From Mustelus asterias (taxonomy: Eukaryota): 60,137 nucleotides of DNA. Position numbers and translations under genes: made by a program. Positions 13,421-60,137 of the stretch are shown in pieces. Numbering within the stretch: position 1 is the stretch's first letter; every line of letters starts with the position of its first letter. A model generated the notes under the pieces. The model searched no databases. It had not been told where the DNA came from and saw nothing but the letters and a program-made list of their open reading frames with translations. The stretch is from assembly GCF_964213995.1 (NCBI RefSeq), contig NW_027590591.1, positions 186,001 through 246,137 of the forward strand, given 5' to 3'.

Positions 13421-13718
13421 ATGACGCGAAGTTGCTCGGAATTTATCCTTTGTGTTGGGGACTGAACCCAAGTCTGTTTGTCCCCTGAGTTGAGTGTTTT
13501 ACCCCGAGAGCCGCAGTTCACAGTGTGACGGCTCGACAGCCGAGATAACTGACGAATGCTGATCTCCTCAACCCTGTGGTCAGGGATTGTCCGCCCCTCT
13601 CCTCCGAGTCCCGTTACTGAACCAACCTGAGCCCAAATACAGCCGCCCCTCCTCTCCCCTCTCCCCATAGCCAGCTCTGTCCCAGAAATTCTGTGATTGT
13701 GGGGGGGGGGCACGTTAC

Positions 13719-13835
13719 CTTTCCTGTAGTTCCGAGTACAGCTGAGAATGTTACCCGTCAGGGACAGGAGCAGCACGAACCCTGTTGCCCCGAAGATAAG
13801 CCACATCGAGGTGCTGCAGCACCAGTCCTGAAACC
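13719..13835 (-). CDS. SIT1/TRAT1-like adaptor, transmembrane exon
   Basis: Acceptor ctctgttgctattgtAG, donor GTAAC, 117 bp, phase 1-1. Encodes (G)FQDWCCSTSMWLIFGATGFVLLLSLTGNILSCTRNYRK; the TM resembles SIT1 (WVLLGAVTLLFLISLAAHL) and TRAT1 (LVISLIFNI) as I recall them. Confidence 0.82.
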
Positions 13836-26024: not shown

Positions 26025-29000
26025 TTCCACAGGAGCAGGCTGAGGGTAAGGGAGCTTGTTTGTGCACTAATTTATTTAATTATTTTTCAGTTAAATTTGT
26101 GAAAAAAATCGGAGGTTTTTTTTCCAAACAGGAAATAGGCCCAGCAGCAGCCTGGGAAGGTTTTGGAGGGTTTAAAAGTAGGCCGCACCTTTGAGCGGGC
26201 AGCGTCGTTAGCGGGCAGTGGAGTGAGCAGGGGACAGAGTGAGAGCTATAAGGGCTTTGGCTCACAGGGCTTCGGCGAAGGCGAGGAAGGTTGTTTGCTT
26301 GTTTTTCTTCTGTTACACCCCCTTTTTGTTTTATCTCCCAAAAACTAAAAAGGACATGGCTGGTATGAGTGGGAGGCCAGTATACTGCATTCGGTGTGGG
26401 ATGTGGGAGTTCCTGGAGACAACTTGCCTCCCGGAAGTCCATATCTGTGCCAGATGTGTGGAACTGCATCTCCTGAAGGATCGTGTAAGGGAGCTGGAGC
26501 TGAGGCTCGATGAACTCAGTTTAGTTAGGGAAAATGAGAGATTAATAGATAAAAGTTATAGTCAGGTAGTGACACCAGGGTCTCGGAAGGAAGACACGTG
26601 GGGCACAGTTAGGAGGGGTAATAGTCAGAAGGGTGATGTGCCAGAAAGTACCCCAGTGGCAGTCTCCCATAAAAGAAAGGGATGGGCAACAGATGGGAGA
26701 AGGGAAGGGAGTGAGCAGTCTGTGGAGGGATCCCCTGTGGTTGTCCCCCTCCAAAATAGGTATATTGTTTTGGATTCTGTGGAGGGGGATGACCCTCCAG
26801 GGGTAAGCCACGAGGACCAGATCGCCTCCACGGAGACAGGCTCAGGGGTCCGGAAGGGAAAGAAGGGGTTTAGGAGAGTGATAGTTGTGGGGGACGCAAT
26901 GGTTAGAGGCACGGACAGGCGGTTCTGTGGGAGTGAACGAGAATCCAGGATGGTAGTCTGCCTCCCTGGTGCCGGGGTACTGGATGTCTCCGAGAGGGTA
27001 GGAAGCATATTTAAAAAGGAAGGTAGTCAAACGGATGTGATTGTACACATTGGTGAAAATGATGTAGGTAGGAAGAGCAGGGGGGGTCATACGAGAGAAA
27101 TTCAGGGAGTTGGGTGCTAGGCTAAAAAGTAAGACCTCCAGTGTAGCAATCTCTGGACTGCTCCCGGTGCCTAGTGCAAGTGAGGCTCGGAACAGGGAGA
27201 TTCTACAGTTGAACGCGTGGCTAAAGGACTGGTGCAAGAGGGAGGGTTTTAAATTCATAGATAACTGGGAAATCTTCAAGTCAGGATGGCAACTGTACAG
27301 AAAGGATGGGTTACACCTCAACTGGAAGGGAGCAAATATCCTGGCTGGGAGTTTTGCTAGAGTGTTTCGGCAGGATTTAAACTAGTGTGGCAGGGGGGTG
27401 GGGAACAAAACAGGAGGTCAGTAAATACTGAGACTGGGGTTGAGCTGGGGGCCAGGGCAAGGCTAGCTAAGAAGAGGAGCACTCTGGAGGAGGAGAACCT
27501 GACTGGGCCTGGAGGTCTGGAGTGCATCTGCTTTAATGCGAGGAGTGTAACGGGTAAAACAGACGAACTTAGGGCCTTAATGCTTATGCGGAATTTGGAT
27601 GTGGTTGCGGTGACGGAAACTTGGTTAAAAGAAGGACAGGACTGGCAGCTGAATATTCCGGGGTATAAGTGTTTTAGGCGAGACAGAGGAGGGGCTAAAA
27701 AAGGTGGGGGAGTAGCGATATTAGTTAAGGAGCATATTACCGCGGTGCAGAGGGTAGACAATTTAGAGGGGTCATGTACTGAGTCGCTGTGGGTGGAACT
27801 CAGAAACAGGAAGGGTGCAGTCACTATGCTGGGGGTGTACTACAGACCACCCAACAGCCCACGGGAAGTGGAGGAAAGGATATGTCAGGAGATTCTGGAT
27901 AGGTGCAGAAAAAATAGGGTTGTTGTAGTGGGGGACTTTAATTTCCCTGGCACAGACTGGAAAGTGCTTAGAGCTGGGGGTCCGGACGGGGAGGAATTTG
28001 TAAAATGCGTACTGGAAGGTTCTTTGGAACAGTATGTAGATAGCCCGACTAGAGAGGGGGCTATACTGGACCTAGTTCTGGGAAATGAGCCCGGTCAGGT
28101 CGTCAAAGTTTCGGTAGGGGAACATGTGGCAAATAGTGACCACAACTCTGTTAACTTTAGGATAGTAATGGACAAGGATGAGTGCTGTCCTACGGGCAGG
28201 GTGCTAAATTGGGGGAAGGCTGACTATAGCCGGATTAGGCAGGAATTGGTGGATGTTGATTGGGAGAGGATGTTCGAGGGTAAGTCCGCGTCTGGCATGT
28301 GGGAGTCTTTTAAGGAACTATTGATAAGGCTGCAGGATAGGCATGTGCCTGTAAAAAGGAAAGATAGGAAAGATAGGATTCGAGAGCCGTGGATAACCAG
28401 GGAAATTGAGGATCTGATTAAAATGAAAAGGGAGGCGTACGTTAAGTCCAGGCAACTGAAAACAGATGGAGCTCTGGAGGAATACAGAGAGAGTAGGAAA
28501 GAACTCAAACGGGGAGTTAGAAGGGCAAAAAGAGGTCACGAGATGTTCTTGGCAGGCAGGATTAAGGAGAATCCTAAGGCATTCTATTCATACGTTAGGA
28601 ACAAAAGAGTTGTTAGGGAGAAAATCGGACCTCTCAGGGACAAAGGAGAGGAATTATGCTTAGAACCCAAGGGAATAGGGGAGATCCTAAATGAATACTT
28701 TGCATCGGTATTCACGAAGGAGAGGGGCGTGTTAACCGGGAGTGTCTCGGAGGGAGGTGTTGACCCGTTAGAGAAAATCTCCATTACAAGAGAGGAAGTG
28801 TTGGTTTTTTAGGGAACATTAAAACTGACAAAGCCCCAGGGCTTGATGGCATCTATCCTCGACTGCTCAGGGAGACGAGAGATGAAATTGCTGGGCCTCT
28901 GACGGAAATCTTTGTCACTTCTTTGGACACGGGTGAGGTCCCTGAGGATTGGAGGATAGCGAATGTGGTCCCGTTGTTTAAGAAGGGTAGCAGGGATAAC

Positions 29001-37229: not shown

Positions 37230-37870
37230 TGGCGATGGCCCAGTGGGATTACCGCTCGGCTAATAATCCAAAAACTCAGCTAATGTTCTGGGGACCCGGA
37301 TTTGAATCCCGTCACGGCAGATGGTGAAAAAAATCTGGAATTAAGAATCTACTGATGACCATGAAACCATTGTTGATTGTGGGAAAAATCCATCTGGGTC
37401 ACTAATGTCCTTTAGGGAAGGAAATCTGCCGTCCTTACCCAGTCTGGCATGTCCGCTACGACTCTCACCAACTTTTACAGATGCACCATAGAAAGTATCC
37501 TTTCTGGATGTATCACAGCTTGGTCTGGCTCCTGACTCCGTCTACATTTTCCACTGCCTTGGGAAAAGCAGCCACGCACCCCGGACATTCTCTCTTCCAC
37601 CTTCTTCCGTCGGGGAAAAGATACAAAAGTCTGAGGTCACGCACCAACCGACTCAAGAACAGCTTCTTCCCTGCTGCTGTCAGACTTTTGAATGGACCGA
37701 CCTCGCATTAAGTTGATCTTTCTCTACACCCCTAGCTGTGACTGTAACACTACATTCTGCACCCTCTCCTTTCCTTCTCTATGAACGGTATGCTTTGTCT
37801 GTATAGCACGCAAGAAACAACACTTTTCGCTGTATCCCAATACACGCGACAATAATAAATCAGATCAAAT
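37230..37870 (+). mobile_element. SacSINE1-like SINE fragment followed by a Rex1/Babar-like 3' end
   Basis: Homologous to 2562-2800 and 8195-8620. Confidence 0.75.
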
Positions 37871-38304
37871 CCCTCCTTCAAAAGTTTATTTGTGGTTTGG
37901 TGGATTGACTCGAACCGGCACCAGACTGTGGTGACGAGGGGAATTTCACAGTAACTTCATTGCAGTGTTAATGTAAGCCTTACTTATGACTAATAAATAA
38001 ACTTTTAACTTTTTAGTCGCAAGTAGGCCGACATTAACACGGCAATGAAGTTACTGTGAAAATCCCCTGGTCGCCACACTCCGGCACCTGTTTGGGTAAC
38101 ACTGAGGGAGAATTTAGCACGGCCAATGCACCCTAACCTTAAGTAAGAAGACCAGAACCTGTGCTCAACCTGGGAGCGGAAGGTGGGAGTGGCTGGTGGG
38201 AGGTACAATGTGATCAGTAGCGAATGTGATCAGTGGCTCGTGCTATCAGATAAACCTGTTGGACTTTAACCTGGTGTGAGACTCCTTACTGTGATCAGTA
38301 GCGA

Positions 38305-41235: not shown

Positions 41236-41315
41236 TCAGTCTTGAGCGGGTGCGGGGCTGGAAGTCCGTTCATTTTCCACGAACAGCTGTTCCGCCTCCC
41301 CTTGCGTCCACACTC
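41236..41315 (-). CDS. Candidate terminal cytoplasmic exon of the MHC gene (coding part)
   Basis: Acceptor ctgactgcattttgcttcccAG at the start of a unique GC-rich island. Direct splicing from the TM exon gives (G)VWTQGEAEQLFVENERTSSPAPAQD* (stop 41236-41238); via the 40-bp exon it gives SVDARGGGTAVRGK* (stop 41270-41272). Confidence 0.55.
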
Positions 41316-43325: not shown

Positions 43326-44011
43326 ACCTTCTCAAGGGGCAGTTAAGGATGGGCAATAAATGCTGAGTCTAGTCAGCCACGCCCACATCCTGTAAATGAA
43401 GAAAGGAAGAAAGAAATTGTCATGATGGGTTTGAAATTTGGCGCTCTGGCGTTGGGGCTGATTTCCCAACTCTTGTACTCAATGGAAGAGAGTTCCAAAC
43501 TCCCACCACCCTGTCCGAATGCGACCTAACCAAGGTTAGGGAAGGAAATCTGCTGTCTTTACCCAGTCTGACCTACATGTGACTCTAGACCCCACACAGC
43601 AATGCGGTCAACTCCTAACTGCCGCCCCTGGAATGTCTCCAGCGCGACACTTGGGTCAGTGGGAAATTAGGGATGGGGACAAGTGCTGCCCCTCCCCATG
43701 GTTCCCACATCCCATGTGCAGATAAAGGGACAATGCTGTGTGGCTATGTGTGGTTGTTTGAGGCTGATCTGTCACTATGTTACCTGAGTCTGCTGCAGAG
43801 GAATCGGGATTGACGCATCTCTGGTTTGGCACAGCTTCAGAGCCACAGGCAGGGAACCCTGGGAAAGCAAGAACCAACGCACACTCTGAATACACGGCCG
43901 ACATTCCCCACCCCCCAACCTCTCAGAGATCTGTGAAGCCCATTCTCCAGTGAAACGCAGTGTGGAACCTGGTTGTCTTTAACGGGAGAAAGATGGAAGG
44001 AACAGCCAAAC

Positions 44012-45212: not shown

Positions 45213-45317
45213 CTCTGCACCTGCCGATCCCTCCAGCCAGGGCAATGATGATTCCGGCAACCCCGATTACAATCCCAGCCACGTAGCCATGAGTTGGCCA
45301 ACTTTTCACCTTGGGAG
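45213..45317 (-). CDS. MHC-family gene (probable WB), connecting peptide + transmembrane exon
   Basis: Acceptor cttgttccccAG, donor GTAAGA, 105 bp, phase 1-1. Encodes (A)PKVKSWPTHGYVAGIVIGVAGIIIALAGGIGRCR: a Gly-rich hydrophobic span followed by basic residues. Confidence 0.88.
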
Positions 45318-46073: not shown

Positions 46074-46355
46074 CCCAAGTCGCTGTTAGTTTGTCGGTGC
46101 TACTGCTGTGCTCCACCTGGCAGGTGTAGATGTCTCTGCTTTGGGGAGTGATGCTGATCTGCAGGGTGGTCTGGAATGTTCCGCCTGTGTTTGGTAAAAT
46201 CCTGCTACTCAACACCTCCTGCTGGACCGTGCCACCATTGTGCAGCCAGGTTGCGTTGATGCCGCTTGGATAGAATCCGTTCACGTGACAGATAAGAAGT
46301 AAAGGGTCTTTCCCTCTGTGCAGGCGATGTGTGGTTATGTTGATGGAGGGCTTGG
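46074..46355 (-). CDS. MHC-family gene (probable WB), Ig C1-set exon (class I alpha3-like)
   Basis: Acceptor ccttccctctctgcAG, donor GTAAG, 282 bp, phase 1-1. Encodes (A)KPSINITTHRLHRGKDPLLLICHVNGFYPSGINATWLHNGGTVQQEVLSSRILPNTGGTFQTTLQISITPQSRDIYTCQVEHSSSTDKLTATW, with CxxxGFYP, W, LPNxxGTFQ and YTCQVEH motifs. Confidence 0.93.
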
Positions 46356-46604
46356 CTGCAGAGAGGGAAGGACGGACAGTTTAACCATCGCCAGATAAAG
46401 TACACACAATATACTGGGAGATCTGTCTCCCGCCGCCCCCCACAGATATTGCTTCCTCCACCATTGTCGCCCTGGATGATTGCCCCCTCTACCTGATGGC
46501 CACCACGGAATGATTGCCATCCCCACCCCCACTCCCGCATCGCTGCCCCGAGTGATCAACCCATCCCTGCAGGAGTTCCCCTTTTTACTCATTCCTGGGA
46601 CACG

Positions 46605-46922
46605 AGCGTCGCTGGCTGGACCAGCATTTAGTGCCCATCCCTAGTTGCCCCTTGGAGGGCAGTTGAGAGTCACCCACATTGCTGTGGCTCTGGAGTCACA
46701 TGTAGGCCAGACCGGGTGAGGACGGCAGATTTCCTTCCCTAAAGGGAACCAGGTGGGTTTTTCCGACAATGGGGCATCAGTAGATTCTTAATTCCAGATA
46801 TTTTTTATTGAATTCAAATTCCACCATCTGCCGTGGCGGGATTCGAACCCGGGTCCCCAGAACATTAGCTGAGTTTCTGGATTAATAGTCTAGTGATAAT
46901 CCCACTAGACCATCACCTCCCC
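46605..46922 (-). mobile_element. SacSINE1-like tRNA SINE
   Basis: Reverse complement of the 2562-2890 family. Confidence 0.75.
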
Positions 46923-48087
46923 TCCCCTCCCCACCCCTCAGGCCTCATCCCCTTGGCACTGCCTGTGTGCCATGGCGGCAGAGACAGGGTGCCCAATTGG
47001 CAATGCCATGGTGCCATGCTGGCACTGCCCCATGGGAACCTCCCTGCCCCATCCCCCGACCACCTCGGGGGCTTCAATGGGCTGCGGTCCCACTGGTGAA
47101 ACATTATAACATCGTGCCCAGCCCCTGTTGGTGAGGCCCACCTGTGATCCTCGCCAGTGAGTACCTTGCCTGGGGGGGTGGGGGGGGGGGGGGGGGGCAG
47201 GCGGGTGGTTATGGTAAGGGAGCCCGGCCGAAAGCGTCCGGCGCTTGTTAATGACATTAAATATTGAAATCAGGAAGGGGGTGAGGCTGATTTTGCCGGA
47301 AAAATGGGGCCGGCAAGATCTTGAGGGGTGTGGAATCGGTGGTGAACTGGATTCTTCGCCACTCAGCCGATCTTACTGGGTGCTCGGCCAGTCAATTGAT
47401 CGATCGCGCCCCCAGTGTTTGTTTTAACCTGAACTAATGCAGAGTTCTGTTGTTTGATGTTTTGCCCTGGGATATTACAGAATGGGGCCTGATTGGGTTG
47501 ATTGACAGGTAAGGTTATAGGACATGGGGGGGCTAGGCTTTCACAGAGAACTCAAGCTGGTCTGCTTATGGATCTTCAGAGAGAGGTCGCTTTCTCTGTA
47601 TCTCTCGCTCCGTCCGACGTGGAGTCTGGAATCTGCCAAGAAATAAGGGTTTTTTTTCTGAGATGCGACCGTTTGTGGGAGTGGGGGAGTTTTCTCTGGA
47701 GGGTTCGGCCTGAGAATGAGAAGACTCTCTGTCTGGATCACTCTCCAGAGGGGTTAAAAGGCTGGAAATCTAGTACCTATGTAAGCATCTTTGGTTTCTG
47801 TGCTATCTGGTTCTAAAGAAGAGGTTTGAGTCTGTGGGGGATACTGCTACATTGGAACAACAGAGAGAGCTAGCTGTTAAGAGTTATACTTTGTCCTGTT
47901 TAAGCATTTTTATTGATGAACGTTATGCTCATTCTTTTTGTTATATTCGAACTGTGTTCTTAAATAAACTTGATTTGATAAAAGCTTCCCAGAGGGTCAC
48001 TGGGATCACACATTATACTCACCCGAATGCTCACTCCATAAAACACAGAGTTTCTGATCTGCTCCTTAACACTCTGTCTAGCACTGT

Positions 48088-49157
48088 NNNNNNNNNNNNN
48101 NNNNNNNNNNNNNNNNNNNNNNNNNNNNNNNNNNNNNNNNNNNNNNNNNNNNNNNNNNNNNNNNNNNNNNNNNNNNNNNNNNNNNNNNNNNNNNNNNNNN
48201 NNNNNNNNNNNNNNNNNNNNNNNNNNNNNNNNNNNNNNNNNNNNNNNNNNNNNNNNNNNNNNNNNNNNNNNNNNNNNNNNNNNNNNNNNNNNNNNNNNNN
48301 NNNNNNNNNNNNNNNNNNNNNNNNNNNNNNNNNNNNNNNNGCTCTCTGTCTCTTTCTATCTGTCCTATTCTGTCCGTCTCACTCTCTCTGTTTGTCTCTC
48401 CATCTTTTTCTTGCTATTTGTCTCTCTCTCTGTTTCAGTCTCTCCCTCTGTGTGTCTCCCTCTTTCTTTCTCTCTCTGTCTCTCTCTCTGTCTCTCTGCC
48501 CCTCTCTATCTCTCTGTCTTGTTGTCNNNNNNNNNNNNNNNNNNNNNNNNNNNNNNNNNNNNNNNNNNNNNNNNNNNNNNNNNNNNNNNNNNNNNNNNNN
48601 NNNNNNNNNNNNNNNNNNNNNNNNNNNNNNNNNNNNNNNNNNNNNNNNNNNNNNNNNNNNNNNNNNNNNNNNNNNNNNNNNNNNNNNNNNNNNNNNNNNN
48701 NNNNNNNNNNNNNNNNNNNNNNNNNNNNNNNNNNNNNNNNNNNNNNNNNNNNNNNNNNNNNNNNNNNNNNNCTGTCTCTCTCACTCTCTCCTGTTCTCTC
48801 TTTCTATCTGTNNNNNNNNNNNNNNNNNNNNNNNNNNNNNNNNNNNNNNNNNNNNNNNNNNNNNNNNNNNNNNNNNNNNNNNNNNNNNNNNNNNNNNNNN
48901 NNNNNNNNNNNNNNNNNNNNNNNNNNNNNNNNNNNNNNNNNNNNNNNNNNNNNNNNNNNNNNNNNNNNNNNNNNNNNNNNNNNNNNNNNNNNNNNNNNNN
49001 NNNNNNNNNNNNNNNNNNNNNNNNNNNNNNNNNNNNNNNNNNNNNNNNNNNNNNNNNNNNNNNNNNNNNNNNNNNNNNNNNNNNNNNNNNNNNNNNNNNN
49101 NNNNNNNNNNNNNNNNNNNNNNNNNNNNNNNNNNNNNNNNNNNNNNNNNNNNNNNNN
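48088..49157. other. N-runs interleaved with CT low-complexity sequence (gap or masking)
   Basis: Runs of n. Confidence 0.95.
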
Positions 49158-49521
49158 CTCCATGAATCTAATCTTATTATTGGCCACATGCCCCTGTCAC
49201 CTGCCTCAGGTGTGGAGATGCCGGCGTTGGACTGGGGTAAACACAGTGAGAGTTTTAACAACACCAGGTTAAAGTCCAACAGGTTTATTTGGTAGCAAAC
49301 GCCACTAGCTTTCTGCCTCAGGGTCAGAGGTTGCTTCCTAGTGTCCCTGTGTGGCCCCCTGGGGATGTTCCTTGCTGTGTTAAGGAGTTATATTGTGGAT
49401 AGATTGCTGTGTTTGTTGTGGAGTGTGGGGGATCTGTGCTCGGACACACAGAGGGGGTCAGTACCCTGCCCGAGGGCCTTGTGTTGTAAATGAGGGTGCG
49501 GGCGGCTTCTCCCTGACAATC

Positions 49522-50600
49522 ACAGTGAGAAGTCTCACACACCAGGTTAAAGTCCAACAGGTTTATTTGGCAGCACTAGCTTTCGGAGCGCTGCTCCTTC
49601 ATCAGGTGAGTGGGAGTTCTGTTCACAAACAGGGCATATAAAGACAAAAACTCAATTTACAAAATAATGGTTGGAATGTGAGTCTTTACAGGTAATCAAG
49701 CCTTAAAGGTACAGACAATGTGAGTGGAGAGAGCGTTAAGCACAGGTTAAAGAGATGTGTATTGTCTCCAGCCAGGACAGTTAGTGGGATTTTGCAAGTC
49801 CAGGCAAGTCGTGGGGGTTACAGATAGTGTGACATGAACCCAAGATCCCGGTTGAGGCCGTCCTCATGTGTGCGGAACCTGGCTATCAGTTTCTGCTCAG
49901 CGACTCTGCGCTGTCGTGTGTCGTGAAGGCCACCTTGGAGAATGCTTACCTGAAGATCAGAGGCCGAATGCCCGTGACCACTGAAGTGTTCCCCAACAGG
50001 AAGAGAACAGTCTTGCCTGGTGATTGTCGAGCGGTGTTCATTCATCCGTTGTCGTAGCGTCTGCATGGTCTCTCCAATGTACCATGCCTCGGGACATCCT
50101 TTCCTGCAGCGTATCAGGTAGACAACGTTGGCCGAGTTGCAAGAGTATGTACCGTGTACCTGGTGGATGGTGTTCTCATGTGAGATGATGGCATCCATGT
50201 CGATGATCCGGCACGTCTTGCAGAGGTTGCCGTGGCAGGGTTGTGTGGTGTCGTGGTCACTGTTCTCCTGAAGGCTGGGTAGTTTGCTGCGGACAATGGT
50301 CTGTTTGAGGTTGTGCGGTTGTTTGAAGGCAAGAAGTGGGGGTGTGGGGATGGCCTTGGCGAGATGTTCGTCTTCATCAATGACATGTTGAAGGCTCCGG
50401 AGGAGATGCCGTAGCTTCTCCGCTTCGGGGAAGTACTGGACGATGAAGGGTACTCTGTCCACCGTGTCCCGTGTTTGTCTTCTGAGGAGGTCGGTGCGGT
50501 TTTTCGCTGTGGCGCGTCGGAACTGTCGATCGATGAGTCGAGCGCCATATCCTGTTCTTATGAGGGCATCTTTCAGCGTCTGGAGGTGTCTGTTGCGATC
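49522..50600 (-). mobile_element. PLE 3' half (GIY-YIG + terminus), inverted relative to its 5' part
   Basis: VVYLIRCRKGC...WYIGET...GLNRD. Confidence 0.92.
49572..49614 (-). ncRNA. Minimal type I hammerhead ribozyme motif (best-conserved copy)
   Basis: CCCACTCAC-CTGATGA-A-GGAGC-AGC-GCTCC-GAAA-GCTA-GTG: intact CUGAUGA/GAAA core and a perfect 5-bp stem II. Confidence 0.72.
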
Positions 50601-51559
50601 TACATCTACATGCACACCAAGAACAGGAAACTTGAGAAACTCGGCATCTCCACCAGCAGCAACCAAGCCTCCCCCGGTACCACAGTAGAAAACAGTACCA
50701 CTGCAGGGAAGCCCATTGTCAACTTGTCGGACTCCACACTTCAACCAGATGAAATCGAAGTTCTCAGCCGAGGGCTCAATTTCTGCCCCACCACCAAAAT
50801 AGACCCCATCAGTCTCGCAGCAGACACAGAGGAATTCATCAGGCGAATGAGGCTGCGGGAGCTCTTCCACAAACCCCAAGAGGCCAACAGCGAACACAAT
50901 GAGACAGCCAATGAACCGGAACAGCCGACAGAGAGATCCACAGTGCAACCGAAGAGGAAAGAGTCGAATTGGACTCCTCCGGAAGGCCGCTGCCCTCGAC
51001 TTGACATGTATGCCCAAGCCATCAGGAGGTGCGTCAACACCAGATTCATCAGCCGCACTCACAAGACAGCCCCGAACATCACCCAAGCACAACGTAACGC
51101 CATCCACGCTCTCAAGACCAACCACAACATTGTCATCAAACCAGCAGACAAAGGAGGGGCCATCGTCATACTGAACAGAACGGATTACTGCAAAGAAGTG
51201 TACCGACAACTGAACAACGAGGAACACTACAGACAGTTACCCACAGATCCGACCAAAGAACACACCCATCAACTCGACACTCTGATCAAAACCTTTGATC
51301 CGGACCTTCAGAGCACCCTCCGTGCTCTCATCCCACGCACTCCCCGCGTTGGAGATCTCTACTGCCTCCCGAAGATACACAAGGCAAACACACCCGGCCG
51401 TCCCATCGTATCGGGCAATGGAACCCTGTGCGAGAACCTCTCCGGCTATGTCGAGGGCATCCTGAAACCCATTGTACAAAGAACCCCCAGCTTTTGTTGC
51501 GACACGACGGACTTCCTACAGAAACTCGGCACACATGGAGCAGTTGAACCAGGAGCACT
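50601..51559 (+). mobile_element. PLE N-terminal/RT portion (resumes at 57057-57883)
   Basis: LSRGLNFCP, KPADKGG, LPKIHK; the frame continues as MDVSALYT at 57067. Confidence 0.92.
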
Positions 51560-52478
51560 CCATAGAACCATAGAAAATTACAGCTCAGAAACAGGCCTTT
51601 TGGCCCTTCTTGTCTGTGCCGAACCATTTTTTGCCTAGTCCCACTGACCTGCACTTGGACCATATCCCTCCACACCCCCCTCATCCATGAACCCGTCCAA
51701 GTTTTTCTTAAATGTTAAAAGTGACCCCGCATTTACCACTTTATCCGGCAGCTCATTCCACACTCCCACCACTCTCTGCGTGAAGAAGCCCCCCCTAATA
51801 TTCCCTTTAAACTTTTCTCCTTTCCCCCTTAACCCATGCCCTCTGGTTTTTTTCTCCCCTAGCCTCAGCGGAAAAAGCCTGCTTGCATTCACTCTATCTA
51901 TACCCATCAAAATCTTATACACCTCTATCAAATCTCCCCTCAATCTTCTACGCTCCAGGGAATAAAGTCCCAACCTATTCAATCTCTCTCTGTAACTCAG
52001 CTTCTCAAGTCCCGGCAACATCCTTGTGAACCTTCTCTGCACTCTTTCAATCTTATATACATCCTTCCTGTAACTAGGTGACCAAAACTGTACACAATAC
52101 TCCAAACTCGGCCTCACCAATGCCTTATATAACCTTACCATAACACTCCAACTTTTATACTCGATACTCCGATTTATAAAGGCCAATGTACCAAAGGCAC
52201 TCTTTACGACCCTATCCACCTGTGACGTCACTTTTAGGGAATTCTGTACCTGTCTTCCCAGATCCCTCTGTTCAACTGCACTCTTCAGAGTCCTACCATT
52301 TACCCTGTACATTCTTCTTGAGTTTGTCCTTCCAAAGTGCAATATCTCACACTTGTCTGCGTTAAATTCCATTTGCCATTTTTCAGCCCATTTTTCTAGT
52401 TGGTCCAAATCCCTCTGCAAGCTTTGAAAACCTTCCTCACTGTCCACTACACCTCCAATCTTTGTATCATCAGCAAAC
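51560..52478 (-). mobile_element. CR1 3' part (its 5' part is at 56830-57056)
   Basis: WISKF / ADDTKIGG junction split by nested inserts. Confidence 0.9.
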
Positions 52479-52592
52479 AGGGGAGACACTAGCACAGTGG
52501 TATTGTCACTCGATCAGTAACACAGAGACCCAGGGCAATGTTCTGGGGACATCAGTTCAAATCCCACCACGGCAGATGGTGAAATTAGAATT

Positions 52593-55500
52593 CATAGAAC
52601 ATTACAGCGCAGAACAGGCCCTTCGGCCCACGATGTTGCACCGACCAGTTAAAAAAAAAACTGTGACCCTCCAACCTAAACCAATTTCTTTTCGTCCATG
52701 AACCTATCTACGGATCTCTTAAACGCCCCCAAACTAGGCGCATTTACTACTGATGCTGGCAGGGCATTCCAATCCCTCACCACCCTCTGGGTAAAGAACC
52801 TACCCCTGACATCGGTTCTATAACTACCCCCCCTCAATTTAAAGCCATGCCCCCTCGTGCTGGATTTCTCCATCAGAGGAAAAAGGCTATCACTATCCAC
52901 CCTATCTAAACCTCTAATCATCTTATATGTTTCAATAAGATCCCCTCTTAGCCGCCGCCTTTCCAGCGAAAACAATCCCAAATCCCTCAGCCTCTCCTCA
53001 TAGGATCTCCCCTCCATACCAGGCAACATCCTGGTAAACCTCCTCTGCACCCTCTCCAAAGCCTCCACATCCTTCCTGTAATGTGGGGACCAGAACTGCA
53101 CACAGTACTCCAAGTGCGGCCGCACCAGAGTTGTGTACAGTTGCAACATAACGCTACGACTCCTAAATTCAATCCCCCTACCAATAAACGCCAAGACACC
53201 ATATGCCTTCTTAACAACCTTATCTACTTGATTCCCAACTTTCAGGGATCTATGCACACATACACCTAGATCCCTCTGCTCCTCCACACTATTCAAAGTC
53301 CTCCCGTTAGCCCTATACTCAACACATCTGTTATTCCTACCAAAGTGAATTACCTCACACTTCTCCGCATTAAACTCCATCCGCCACCTCTCGGCCCAAC
53401 TTTGCAACCTGTCTAAGTCTTCCTGCAAACTACGACACCCTTCCTCACTGTCTACCACACCACCGACTTTGGTGTCATCAGCAAATTTGCTAATCCACCC
53501 AACTATACCCTCATCCAGATCATTAATAAATATTACAAACAGCAGTGGCCCCAAAACAGATCCCTGAGGTACACCACTTGTAACCGCACTCCATGATGAA
53601 TATTTACTATCAACCACCACCCTCTGTTTCCTATCCGCTAGCCAATTCCTGATCCAATTTCCTAGATCACCCCCAATCCCATACATCTGCATTTTCTGCA
53701 GAAGCCTACCATGGTGAACCTTATCAAACGCCTTACTAAAATCCATATATACCACGTCCACTGCCTTGCCCCCATCCACCTCCTTGGTCACTTTCTCAAA
53801 AAACTCAATAAGGTTAGTAAGGCACGACCTACCTGCCACAAAACCATGCTGACTATCACCTATCAATTCATTACTCTCCAAATAACTATAAATCCTATCC
53901 CTTATAATTTTTTCCAACATCTTGCCGACAACAGAAGTGAGACTCACCGGTCTATAATTCCCGGGGAAGTCTCTGTTCCCCTTCTTAAACAATGGGACAA
54001 CATTCGCTAACCTCCAATCTTCTGGTACTATACCAGAGGCCAACGACGACCTGAAGATCAGAGCCAGAGGCTCTGCAATCACTTCTCTTGCCTCCCAGAG
54101 AATCCTTGGACAAATCCCATCCGGACCAGGGGATTTATCTATTTTCAGACCCTCCAGAATATCCTGCACATCCTCCTTATCAACTGTAATACTGTCTATT
54201 CTACTCCCTTGCAACCCAGTGTCCTCCTCAGCTATATTCATGTCCCCTTGCGTGAACACCGAAGAGAAATATTGGTTCAATGCTTCACCAATCTCCTCCG
54301 GTTCCACACATAACTTCCCTCTGCCATCTATAACTGGCCCTAAACTTGCCCTAACCAACCTTCTGTTCTTGACATACCTATAGAACGCCTTAGGATTCTC
54401 TTTAACCCTATCCGCCAAAGTCTTCTCATGTCCCCTTTTAGCCCTTCTAAGCTCGCTCTTCAACTCCCTCTTAGCCAATCTAAAGCTTTCTAGTGCACTA
54501 CCCGAGTGCTCACGTCTCATCCGAACATAAGCCTCCTTTTTCTTTTTAACCAACAAAGAAACTTTTTTGGTGCACCACGGTTCCCTAGCCCTACCAATTC
54601 CTCCTTGCCTGACAGGGACATACCTATCACAGACTCGCAGTAGCTGCTCCTTGAAAAAACTCCACATGTCGGACGTTCCCAGTCCCTGTAATCTCCTAGT
54701 CCAACCTATGTTTCCTAATTCTCTCCTAATAGCCTCATAATTACCCTTCCCCCAGCTAAAACCACTGGCCCGAGGTTCATGCCTATCCCTTTCCATCACT
54801 AAGGTGAACGTAACCGAATTGTGGTCACTATCACCAAAATGCACACCAACTTCCAAGTCTAGCACCTGGTCTGGCTCATTTCCCAGCACCAGATCCAATA
54901 TAGCCTCACCTCTAGTTGGCCTGTCTACATACTGAGTCAAAAAACCTTCCTGCACGCTTTGAACAAAAACTGACCCCTCTAACGAGCTAGAGCTATAACA
55001 ATTCCAGTCAATATTAGTCAAGTTAAAATCCCCCATAACAATTGCCCTATTACTTTCACTCCTAAGCAGGATTGACTCCGCAATCCTTTCCTCAACCTCT
55101 CTAGAACTTTTAGGAGGTCTATAAAAGACTCCCAACAGGGTGACCTCTCCTCTCCTATTTCTAATCTCCGCCCATACTACCTCAACAGATAAGTCCTCAT
55201 CAAACCTCCTCTCTGACACTGTGATACAATCTCTGACCAATAATGCTACCCCTCCCCCTCTTCTACCTCCTTCCCTACTTCGACTAAAACATTTGAACCC
55301 CGGGACCTGCAGCATCCATTCCTGCCCCTGCTCTATCCATGTCTCTGAAATAGCCACAACATCGAAGTCCCAGGTACTGATCCACGCTGCAAGTTCACCC
55401 ACTTTATTGCGAATACTCCTGGCATTGAAGTATACACATTTCAAACCCTGCTCCACCCCACCTCTGCAATGCCGTGCATTGCAGTCCCCATCCATGCATC

Positions 55501-55885
55501 CCTCACTTTCAGCCCCACTACTCAGGATCCCTCCCCCCCCCCGAATCAGTTTAAACCTCCCTGCATGGCCTTAGCAAATTTACCCCCCAGGATATTGGTC
55601 CCCTTCTGATTAAGGTGTAGACCATCCTTCTCATAGAGGTCACACCTTCCCCAGTACGAGCCCCAATTGCTTAAGTACCTGAACCCCTCCCTCCTGCACC
55701 ATCCCCTCAGCCATGAATTCAAACCTTCCCTCTCCCTATTCCTCTCTAAACTATCCCGTGGTACAGGCAAGAGTCCAGAGATAACCACTCTGTCAGTCTT
55801 GGCCTTTAGTTTCCACCCCAACTCCATAAATCCCTGCCTAATATCCCCTTCCCCTATCCTCCCTATGTCGTGTGTCCCCACATGT
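52593..55885 (-). mobile_element. CR1 with intact ORF2 (52676-55495, 939 aa APE+RT) and ORF1 C-terminus
   Basis: Uninterrupted frame with [21 protein letters not shown] and FADD; ORF1 esterase DGLHLN. Confidence 0.96.
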
Positions 55886-56002
55886 ACAATTCAATAAAAC
55901 TCTGGAATTAGAAGTTTAATGATGACCATGAATCCATCGTCAATTGTCGTAAGAACCCGTCTGGTTCACTCATGTTCTTTCGGAAAGGAAATTTGTTCAG
56001 GG

Positions 56003-56828
56003 AGGCACGGTGACACAGTGGTTAGCACTGCTGCTTCACAGCTCCAGGGTCCCGGGGCGGCACGGTGACACAGTGGGTTAGCACTGCTGCTTCACAGCTC
56101 CAGGGACCCGGGGCGGCACGGTGACACAGTGGTTAGCACTGCTGCTTCACAGCTCCAGGGTCCCGGGGCGGCACGGTAGCACAGTGGTTAGCACTGCTGC
56201 TTCACAGCTCCAGGGTCCCGGGGCGGCACGGTAGCACAGTGGTTAGCACTGCTCCCTCACAGCTCCAGGGACCCGGGGCAGCACGGTGACACAGTGGTTA
56301 GCACTGCTCCCTCACAGCTCCAGGGACCCGGGGCAGCACGGTAGCACAGTGGTTAGCACTGCTCCCTCACAGCTCCAGGGACCCGGGGCAGCACGGTAGC
56401 ACAGTGGTTAGCACTGCTGCTTCACAGCTCCAGGGTCCCGGGCGGCACGGTGACACAGTGGTTAGCACTGCTGCTTCACAGCTCCAGGGTTCCGGGCGGC
56501 ACGGTGACACAGTGGTTAGCACTGCTGCTTCACAGCTCCAGGGTCCTGGGTTCGATTCCCGGATCGGGTCACTGTCTGTGTGGAGTTTGCAAGTTCTCCT
56601 CGTGTCTGCGTGGGTTTCCTCCGGGTGCTCTGGTTTCCTCCCACAGTGCAAAGATGTGCGGGTTAGGTTGATTGGCCAGGTTAAAAATTGCCCCTTAGAG
56701 TCCTGAGATGCGTAGGTTAGAGGGATTAGCGGGTAAAATATGTGGGGGTAGGGCCTGGGTGGGATTGTGGTCGGTGCAGACTCGATGGGCCGAATGGCCT
56801 CCTTCTGCACTGTAGGGTTTCTATGATT
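56003..56828 (+). mobile_element. HE1 SINE with ~10 tandem copies of its 55-bp tRNA-head 5' segment
   Basis: Unit GGGGCGGCACGGTGACACAGTGGTTAGCACTGCTGCTTCACAGCTCCAGGGTCCC, followed by a complete HE1 body. Confidence 0.9.
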
Positions 56829-57056
56829 TCTAAACTTGCTGATCCAATTTACCACATTATCATCCAGATCATTGATATAGATGACAAACAACAATGGACC
56901 CAGCACCGATCCCTGCGGCACACCACTAGTCACAGGCCTCCACTCAGAGAAGCAATCCTCCACAACCACTCTCTGGCTTCTTCCATTGAGCCAGTGTCTA
57001 ATCCAATTTACTACCTCCCCATGTATACCCAGCGACTGAACCTTCCTAACTAACCT

Positions 57057-57883
57057 CCTCGTCACAATGGATGTCTCGGCACTCTACACCAGCATCCCCC
57101 ATGACGATGGCATTGCTGCAACGGCCTCAGTGCTCAGCGCCAACAACTGCCAGTTTCCAGATGCAATTTTACATCTCATCCGCTTCATCCTGGACCACAA
57201 TGTCTTCACCTTCAACAACCAGTTCTTCATCCAGACACACGGAACAGCCATGGGGACCAAATTTGCACCTCAATATGCCAACATCTTCATGCACAGGTTC
57301 GAACAAGACTTCTTCACCGCACAGGACCTTCAACCGATGCTATACACTAGAACATTTTCTTCCTTTGGACTCATGGTGAGCAATCACTGAAACAACTATA
57401 TGATGACATCAACAAGTTCCATCCCACCATCAGGCTCACCATGGACTACTCTCCGGAATCGGTTGCATTCTTGGACACACGCATCTCCATTAAGGACGGT
57501 CACCTCAGCACCTCACTGTACCGCAAGCCCACGGATAACCTCACGATGCTCCACTTCTCCAGCTTCCACCCTAAACACGTTAAAGAAGCCATCCCCTACG
57601 GACAAGCCCTCCGGATACACAGGATCTGCTCGGATGAGGAGGATCGCAACAGACACCTCCAGACGCTGAAAGATGCCCTCATAAGAACAGGATATGGCGC
57701 TCGACTCATTGATCAACAGTTCCGACGCGCCACAGCGAAAAACCGCACCGACCTCCTCAGAAGACAAACACGAGACACGGCGGACAGAGTACGGGCATTC
57801 AGCCTCTGATCTTTGGGGAAGCGTTCTCCAAGGCGGCCTTCACGACACACGACAGCGCAGAGTCGCTGAGCAGAGACTGATAG
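57057..57883 (+). mobile_element. PLE RT continuation, internally deleted
   Basis: HGTAMGTKFAPQYANIFM and YRKPT motifs. Confidence 0.9.
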
Positions 57884-57884
57884 C

Positions 57885-58324
57885 TGTGTGTATGAGTGTG
57901 TCANNNNNNNNNNNNNNNNNNNNNNNNNNNNNNNNNNNNNNNNNNNNNNNNNNNNNNNNNNNNNNNNNNNNNNNNNNNNNNNNNNNNNNNNNNNNNNNNN
58001 NNNNNNNNNNNNNNNNNNNNNNNNNNNNNNNNNNNNNNNNNNNNNNNNNNNNNNNNNNNNNNNNNNNNNNNNNNNNNNNNNNNNNNNNNNNNNNNNNNNN
58101 NNNNNNNNNNNNNNNNNNNNNNNNNNNNNNNNNNNNNNNNNNNNNNNNNNNNNNNNNNNNNNNNNNNNNNNNNNNNNNNNNNNNNNNNNNNNNNNNNNNN
58201 NNNNNNNNNNNNNNNNNNNNNNNNNNNNNNNNNNNNNNNNNNNNNNNNNNNNNNNNNNNNNNNNNNNNNNNNNNNNNNNNNGTGTGTGTGCGAGTGTGTG
58301 AGTGTGTCTGTGCGAGTGTGTGAA

Positions 58325-58360
<36 letters not shown>

Positions 58361-59075
58361 GAGTGTGCAAGGTGTGTGTGCGAGTGTGTGAATGTGTGAG
58401 TGTGTGTGTGTGTGCGAGTGTGCGAGTGTGCAAGGTGCGAGTGTGTGAGTGTGTGAGTGTGCGAGCGACTGTGTGCGAGTGTGTGAGTGTGTGTGCGAGT
58501 GTGTGAATGTGTGAGTGTGTGAATGTGTGAGTGTGTGTGTGTGTGTGTGCGAGTGTGTGNNNNNNNNNNNNNNNNNNNNNNNNNNNNNNNNNNNNNNNNN
58601 NNNNNNNNNNNNNNNNNNNNNNNNNNNNNNNNNNNNNNNNNNNNNNNNNNNNNNNNNNNNNNNNNNNNNNNNNNNNNNNNNNNNNNNNNNNNNNNNNNNN
58701 NNNNNNNNNNNNNNNNNNNNNNGAATGTGTGAGCGACTGTGTGCGAGTGTGTNNNNNNNNNNNNNNNNNNNNNNNNNNNNNNNNNNNNNNNNNNNNNNNN
58801 NNNNNNNNNNNNNNNNNNNNNNNNNNNNNNNNNNNNNNNNNNNNNNNNNNNNNNNNNNNNNNNNNNNNNNNNNNNNNNNNNNNNNNNNNNNNNNNNNNNN
58901 NNNNNNNNNNNNNNNNNNNNNNNNNNNNNNNNNNNNNNNNNNNNNNNNNNNNNNNNNNNNNNNNNNNNNNNNNNNNNNNNNNNNNNNNNNNNNNNNNNNN
59001 NNNNNNNNNTGAGTGTGCGAGTATCTGAGTGTGTGAGCGAGTGTGTGCGTGTGTGAGTGTGTGTGAGCGAGTGTG
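57885..59075. repeat. (GT)n-rich microsatellite region with N-runs
   Basis: GT/GA repeats and runs of n. Confidence 0.9.
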
Positions 59076-59076
59076 T

Positions 59077-59414
59077 CATAGAAACCTTAGTGCAGAAAGA
59101 GGCCATTCAGCCCATCGAGTCTGCACCGACCACAATCCCACCCAGGCCCTACTCCCATATCCCTACATATTTTACCCACTAATCCCTCTAATCTACGCAT
59201 CCCAGGATACTAAGGGGCAATTTTAGCATGGCCAATCAACCCAACCCGCACATCTTTGGACTGTGGGAGGAAACCGGAGCACCCGGAGGAAACCCACGCA
59301 GACACGAGGAGAATGTGCAAACTCCACACAGACAGTGACCCGAGCCGGGAATCGAACCCAGGTCCCTGGAGCTGTGAAGCAGCAGTGCTAACCACTGTGC
59401 TACCGTGCCGCCCC
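59077..59414 (-). mobile_element. HE1 SINE, full length
   Basis: Complete head, core and tail. Confidence 0.9.
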
Positions 59415-59435
59415 ATTCACACTGAGGTCACTTAC

Positions 59436-59693
59436 CAATCAGCCTGCGAGCTGCCTGTATAATTGCCTCTGCTACGAGCGGTGCGAATGCGCCGTAACGG
59501 ATGTACTGTTTGATCAGCCTCTCATTCGCATTGAGACTCTGGACCAATGGTTCTGCTACTGGCTTCACGGCCAGGAACTGATTGGTGGAATAGTCGAATC
59601 GGATAAACTCTGTCCCGTCGTAAGCGGCACTCAGCTTTGTGGCTGGGGTTTGGGAATTATCGAAGGTGAGCATGAACTGGGTGATGTGTGTCC
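59436..59693 (-). CDS. MHC-family gene (probable W-category beta chain), membrane-distal beta1/alpha2-like exon
   Basis: Acceptor cttttccctccatccAG, donor GTAAGT, 258 bp, phase 1-1. Encodes (G)THITQFMLTFDNSQTPATKLSAAYDGTEFIRFDYSTNQFLAVKPVAEPLVQSLNANERLIKQYIRYGAFAPLVAEAIIQAARRLI, which aligns by eye to class I alpha2 (GSHTLQxM...AYDGKD) and class II beta1 (EYVRFDSDVGEYRAV). Confidence 0.85.
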
Positions 59694-59837
59694 CTGGATG
59701 GAGGGAAAAGCGAGGCAGTTAGTCTGAGTAACAAACCCCCATTCCGAATCCAACCACCACAGCTGGCCTTTCCCTCTGCAATCCCCCCCTCCCCCACAAA
59801 TTCCTTCCCTTCATTGACTATGTTGGGGGTAGGATTA

Positions 59838-60137
59838 GTTTGTGGATGACAGTAAGATTGTCCGGGTGGCTAAGAGTGAGGCGGAGTGTCTTGGGCTACA
59901 AGAATTTATAGATGGAATGCTCAAATGGGCGGATAAGTGGCGGATGGAATTTAACCCTGAAAAGTGTGAGGTGTTCCACTTCGGAAGGAATAAATTGACA
60001 AGGAAGAACTCAATGAATGGTAGGACACTGGGAAGTTCTGTGGAACAAAGGGATCTTGGCATTTTATCCACAGATCTCTGAAAGCGGAAGGGCGTGTTAG
60101 TAGGGTGGTGAAAAAGGCAGATGGGACAATCGCCTTT
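59838..60137 (+). mobile_element. CR1 RT fragment
   Basis: WADKWRMEFNPEKC; similar to 41666-41955. Confidence 0.85.

Follow-up and report, generated by a model that had tools for sequence, protein, structure and literature searches.

The window, the whole stretch of 60,137 nucleotides of Mustelus asterias DNA analysed here, ends with contig C559 and carries on its minus strand five exons of a gene that is almost certainly the orthologue of WB-DS1 of Triakis, a beta chain of the W-category of MHC molecules. The membrane-distal (beta1) exon, at 59436..59693, is 258 nt long and holds 85 whole codons between its boundaries cag/G and G/gtaagt (phase 1/1); it encodes the interface motif Q6/A32/G35/E37, has Phe and Gly at the two cysteine positions of the groove disulfide and is devoid of Trp. 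Downstream, on the same strand, follow the beta2 Ig C1-set exon (46074..46355), with class I-type P57 and G61 and without the class II W61, an exon for the connecting peptide and transmembrane segment (45213..45317), with glycines of class II type, a cytoplasmic exon (43784..43858) and the last coding exon, which includes the stop codon (41236..41315). The cytoplasmic exon is missing from two of four Triakis proteins and is therefore optional.

All four exons after beta1 have ag acceptors and gt donors, and the five exons joined give the database protein P0001 in an unbroken reading. A search of the genome with the beta1 exon gave one match (2 candidates scored). A 647-nt contig of the public run X3, whose run type is not on record, covers 59436-59694 with 0 differences and continues for 30 bases that are unique in the window and lie at the start of the beta2 exon. 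The 13-kb intron is thus missing from this contig, which joins the two exons precisely at their splice sites. The gene is intact and spliced, the read support being for the beta1-beta2 junction in one sample of one study. Intron 1 (59694..60137, minus strand) is cut by the end of contig C559, and no leader exon was found in these last 444 bases of the window, nor on contigs C2626 or C1081 of the same genome. The Triakis protein, at 92% identity, passes directly from leader to beta1; the WB leader exon of Mustelus lies beyond the end of contig C559.

The introns and flanks of the gene (46356-59435 and 1-41000) are packed with remnants of LINE-like reverse transcriptase, a SINE-like unit in a tandem array near 56000-56550 and further tandem repeats. 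Downstream of the WB gene, at about 13717-13835 on the minus strand, lies a short transmembrane-adaptor-like exon with no Pfam match. It shares 64% identity over 42 residues with the N-terminus of the Carcharodon model P0011, which fuses this adaptor-like N-terminus to a DS1 beta1 exon and has no beta2.

Identity as a W-category beta chain

The W-category was published in 2021 by Okamura et al. as alpha-beta pairs of class II type whose interfaces are of class I type (PMC8713811), and has been proposed as an intermediate between MHC class II and class I (PMC8812513). According to PMC8713811, beta1 residues Q6, A32, G35 and D37 of WB chains are the partners of W61 in WA alpha2, P57 and G61 are the hallmarks of WB beta2, and W-category molecules have an incomplete set of peptide-binding residues. 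The protein encoded in the window has the class II-type layout of one membrane-distal domain, one C1-set domain, a transmembrane segment and a tail. Its beta1 domain has Q6, A32 and G35, and its Glu at position 37 is that of the published DS1 type row; in beta2, P140 and G144 stand for P57 and G61, and the transmembrane segment is identical to the DS1 row of Dataset S3. P0001, labelled Mustelus asterias in the database, clusters at 92% identity with four Triakis scyllium proteins (BBJ00831-4), which are the 'banded houndshark WB DS1 n1' rows of Datasets S1-S3 in PMC8713811. Thus the gene type is already known and we add no new one.

Database labels in this cluster vary. The window gene carries the misleading label of a class II DR beta-like chain. 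A Triakis beta2 sequence (P0002) is entered as a homologue of class I alpha3, in keeping with the single exon that, according to PMC8713811, was first reported in 1992.

Two other class assignments were considered and rejected. A conventional MHC class II beta chain would not have G144 at the invariant beta2 W61 position, which is Trp in all five human IIB rows shown, nor would it be without the beta1 disulfide, of which the nurse shark IIB row has both cysteines. A class I heavy chain is rejected because the class I peptide anchors and the C101-C164 pair are all absent in the published column map (F, L, S, L, Q, A and A at the anchors; F and G at the cysteines).

The original prediction, made from the DNA sequence, had aligned GTHITQFM...AAYDGTE of the beta1 exon with class I alpha2 GSHTLQxM...xAYDGKD, placing equivalents of Q96, A117, D119, G120 and an acidic residue 122. 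The columns of Dataset S1 (PMC8713811) agree, with Q5=Q96, A23=A117, D25=D119, G26=G120 and E28=D122. In this map the columns were read by eye and the residues placed on the Triakis DS1 row through a gap-free alignment, and the helix register depends on the gapped published alignment. The middle of the exon had also been called class II beta1-like, which holds in part. Pfam MHC_II_beta matches residues 23-63 exactly at its cut-off (E 4.4e-4, 20.9 bits) and MHC_I matches residues 17-57 below cut-off (E 0.0043); the best PDB sequence matches are MR1 alpha2, with the W-category name on none of the best 60. The middle is therefore similar to both classes rather than to class II in particular.

Loss of the groove disulfide

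As first noted from the sequence, the 85 codons contain 0 Cys and 0 Trp. In the columns of Dataset S1, F10 occupies the C101 position and G67 the C164 position, and the Trp columns W133, W147 and W167 hold F39, L53 and A70. Zero Cys in 85 residues is not rare by composition (p ~0.15), and at least 2 Cys occur in the beta1 span of 38 of 41 other MHC-type proteins, a comparison set made of 41 of the 46 non-DS1 matches spanning both domains. The loss is notable because Cys is missing at both disulfide positions, not because of the overall composition. The description of the helix as unusually hydrophobic was likewise borne out: residues 63-78 have a Kyte-Doolittle value of 1.18, reached by none of the 41 comparison proteins (mean -0.32, sd 0.46, max 0.68), and the whole helix 44-85, a stretch not picked post hoc, stands at 0.30 against -0.67 (max 0.04) in the same set. 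The helix end is weaker in Stegostoma (-0.64) and in rays (0.39 and 0.20), so its hydrophobicity is not common to all DS1-like chains.

The absence of Cys extends to relatives. All 11 DS1-like proteins in our alignment, which span 8 shark and ray genera, are without beta1 Cys; for those of Stegostoma, Mobula and Hemitrygon, orthology is based on search rank. In the WB rows of Dataset S1 (PMC8713811), the C164 column is without Cys in 19 of 48, namely 8/8 DS1, 5/5 DS3, one lungfish and 5/5 salamander rows, and both groove cysteines are kept in 4/4 Nds5, 22/22 teleost, the coelacanth and two lungfish rows. Of the seven DS1 rows that cover the C101 column, two still have Cys there (zebra bullhead shark and spiny dogfish), and this suggests, from the aligned rows, that C164 was lost before C101 in DS1. 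Among the alpha2 rows of the same dataset, the C101-C164 pair is missing from 3/22 non-classical class I (chicken CD1-2, bandicoot CD1 and a dogfish non-classical class I) vs 0/17 classical class I. Within the Mustelus genome, two Nds5-like beta1 exons on contig C1081 retain both Cys.

A salamander W pair reaches the cell surface in experiment (PMC8713811), and this pair is without the C164 equivalent in Dataset S1. Given this, and the loss common to DS1-like chains, the aligned sequences mark the disulfide loss as an old subgroup trait that is compatible with folding. The DS1 loss is already visible in the published orthologue alignment (PMC8713811). Our literature search found no later W-category work and no statement on the Cys loss, a result that covers parts of PMC8713811, whose SI Appendix may discuss Cys loss or groove models, and a word search of PMC10751288 and PMC12863176 that returned no W-category passage.

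The Cys loss could instead mark a decaying or unexpressed copy, and two changes in the Mustelus copy could be read in this way. Asp33 (59593-59595, minus strand) removes an N-x-S/T N-glycan sequon of beta1 that is present in 8 of 11 aligned proteins; the same codon stands in contigs of runs X1, X3 and X5, X5 being from another organism. Gly143, in the beta2 exon (46074-46355, minus strand) and known from the assembly sequence, replaces the Asp of the other 10 DS1-like proteins and of at least 90% of a 52-sequence alignment. The window also has no leader exon; however, the leader falls past the contig end. Against decay, the reading frame and splice sites are intact, a spliced contig exists, the same F and G occur in the Triakis orthologue, and the loss is spread over the 8 shark and ray genera. 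The explanation is thus largely refuted and we hold it to be very improbable.

Probable partner chain and predicted complex

A WA-DS10 gene lies on the minus strand of contig C2626, with alpha2 near 26437-26739, alpha1 near 37867-38118 and the leader, whose start codon lies about 150 bases short of where the contig stops. The encoded protein shares 88% identity with WA-DS10 of Triakis and has W180 (=W61) and L158 (=F/L37) in alpha2, together with F at position 8 and H at position 57 as in the blue shark DS10 row. The alpha1 domain (L035:8468-8719, C2626) has two extra Cys at class I floor positions 9 and 24, as do 6/7 published DS10 rows, and a cross-strand disulfide between them (C46-C59) is possible.

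The two chains are encoded on different contigs. C559 ends within WB intron 1, and WA-DS10 and WB-DS1 are each oriented away from the gap. The contigs probably follow one another as C1081, C2626, the gap and C559 in reverse, an inferred join across which WA-DS10 and WB-DS1 would lie head to head. On C1081 there are two alpha2 exons of WA-DS5 and two beta1 exons of WB-Nds5, and the first W exon on C2626, at its start, is a beta2 exon of Nds5 type. The W cluster as a whole comprises at least 3 pairs over three contigs (L037-L048 on C1081, L032 on C2626) and includes two Nds5-type beta2 exons. No WB-DS3/WA-Nds3 pair was seen among 138 of 359 candidates scored and 20 loci translated, a count that is not proof of absence. 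Elsewhere in the genome (G000:C8, ~21.6-43.4 Mb) there are several dozen C1-set exons, many of them near-identical, which probably represent expanded class I and class II families.

AlphaFold predicts the MHC platform fold for beta1, with four strands and two helices at pLDDT 78-98 per block, from the 52-sequence alignment, which includes 41 class I/II sequences and favours an MHC fold; an 8-sequence alignment gave a poor model (mean pLDDT 48.9). Structure comparison places the chain closest to class II beta chains (Foldseek E 1.6e-15; Z 16.4 and rmsd 7.1 with 181 aligned), and the rmsd of ~7 A probably stems from the inter-domain angle in a chain modelled alone.

Folded together, the WA-DS10 and WB-DS1 ectodomains reach a complex score of 0.80 vs 0.01 for the best control, with the runs agreeing in at least 92% of contacts and partner pLDDT of at least 86. 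The mark for this score is reached by 51/78 solved vs 2/108 mismatched microbial pairs and by 71/105 solved vs 2/126 unrelated eukaryotic pairs, and reaching it does not identify the member of a family that binds. Class II alpha-beta complexes have been solved, and the score therefore shows likeness more than specific pairing. On the model, WB-DS1 is predicted to pair with WA-DS10. The modelled interface includes WA W180 and WB Q5, A23, D25, G26 and E28; the pairing of W180 with these residues is not among the 25 pairs listed. The motif had originally been described as the one that contacts beta2m W60 in class I. Here it most likely contacts W61 of a W-category alpha chain and not beta2m, as PMC8713811 describes for the W-category.

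Toward the groove, F10, A74, I77 and I78 pack on WA V42 in the predicted complex, and part of the hydrophobic helix is therefore buried against the partner's sheet. Along both helices (WB 45-74, WA 79-114), contacts to the other chain return at intervals of three to four residues. In an open groove such contacts are expected mainly at the helix ends, and a groove model folded without ligand may collapse. Since the contacts recur along the length of the helices, whereas those of an open groove would be expected at the ends, this one predicted complex hints at a narrowed or closed groove.

Groove, ligand and known systems

The original proposal of a non-classical groove is upheld by the residues that would face a ligand. 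In the published column map, none of the seven class I anchors is kept (Y123, T143, K146, W147, Y159, W167 and Y171 are F, L, S, L, Q, A and A, with F123 conservative), the disulfide is absent, and floor positions 97, 99, 114 and 116 are F, L, L and A. R58, Q62 and Y66, on the groove side, are polar. Low polymorphism also appears to be a feature of WB-DS1, on the basis of two Triakis alleles that differ at only 2 beta1 residues and of two samples of one study with no difference in beta1.

We give an even chance to the reading in which WB-DS1 and WA-DS10 form a narrowed or closed apolar groove that takes no peptides and serve as a surface ligand for a receptor. The beta chain would pair with WA-DS10 through an interface that includes Q5, A23, D25, G26 and E28 on one side and WA W180 on the other. 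The Phe and Gly at the cysteine positions, with V73, A74, I77 and I78, would hold the helix on the sheet by packing in place of the disulfide, the two groove helices would sit close together, and the molecule would act as a low-polymorphism surface ligand of a receptor rather than as a peptide presenter. The polar residues R58, Q62 and Y66 and the less hydrophobic helix end in Stegostoma and the rays count against this reading.

A lipid or a small apolar ligand could also be bound, if the pair keeps a narrow hydrophobic cleft in the manner of CD1, which binds lipids (PMC8713811). The apolar floor (F6, L8, L20, A22, F29, I30) would suit such a cleft, the non-classical class I rows that have lost C101-C164 include two of CD1 type, and Leu-Asn occupies the W147 position in DS1 and in 3/4 CD1 rows of the published alignment. 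The predicted helix-helix contacts, however, argue against a large cavity, and position 116 is Phe in most orthologues, which would fill the floor; we therefore regard a CD1-like cleft as possible though unlikely.

An open groove that binds peptides with non-classical anchoring is distinctly less probable. Some W members, of a teleost subgroup, have been argued to have ligand-binding grooves (PMC8713811), and beta1 does diverge faster than beta2 (87% vs 95% identity to Triakis; 46% vs 79% to Cetorhinus). Against such a groove stand the loss of every class I anchor and the apparently low polymorphism, and the teleost subgroup keeps both Cys in all its rows of Dataset S1 whereas DS1 does not.

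DM and DO combine the architecture of class II with a degenerate groove. WB-DS1 shows this combination too, and its partner WA-DS10 has the two extra alpha1 Cys; the pair could then be an intracellular chaperone of other MHC molecules. This role is more improbable still: the interfaces are of class I type, the beta2 W61 kept by human DMB and DOB is absent, and the salamander W pair that shares the lack of a C164 equivalent is found at the cell surface.

Returning to the narrowed or closed groove, a fuller version of it is offered as a tentative and somewhat doubtful proposal. DS10/DS1 would be a W molecule of ancient origin in sharks and rays, with a groove zipped shut: Phe/Gly packing would have replaced the beta1 disulfide, and a new disulfide (WA C46-C59) would brace the floor of the partner. 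The closed top would act as an antigen-independent ligand of gamma-delta T cells or of an NK-type receptor, while in its Nds5 neighbours the groove braced by the ancestral disulfide would have persisted. The link to gamma-delta T cells is a conjecture of Kaufman (PMC8812513).

Our analysis singles out a single-copy, expressed WA-DS10/WB-DS1 pair with both chains identified, and a contrast within one genome between DS1 without the disulfide and Nds5 with it. The earlier observation is correct and concerns a known gene, its interface motif being a hallmark already published for the W-category (PMC8713811). The predicted platform fold, the orthologues without the Cys and the splicing of the gene all speak for the earlier reading rather than against it. 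The remaining interest lies in the function of the DS10/DS1 pair and in the modest hint, from the model, of a closed groove.

Compared with Triakis scyllium WB-DS1 n1, the Mustelus chain shares F and G at the Cys positions, a beta1 without Cys or Trp, Q6/A32/G35/E37, P57/G61 and the transmembrane segment. The Mustelus copy differs at 11/85 beta1 residues, has lost the N-x-S sequon (D33), has Q in place of R at the Y159 position and has G for D at beta2 position 60. WB-Nds5 and teleost WB are, like WB-DS1, two-domain beta chains with class I-type interface residues; unlike WB-DS1, they keep both groove Cys, in the published rows and in the two Nds5-like paralogues of the Mustelus genome. WB-DS1 resembles classical class II beta chains in the order of its domains, the layout of its exons, its transmembrane glycines and its predicted overall fold, but it is without the beta1 disulfide and the beta2 W61 and carries a class I-type interface motif. 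The AYDG-type motif is shared with the alpha2 domain of non-classical class I molecules (MR1, CD1, HFE and FcRn); these are, however, three-domain heavy chains paired with beta2m, whereas WB-DS1 is a two-domain chain.
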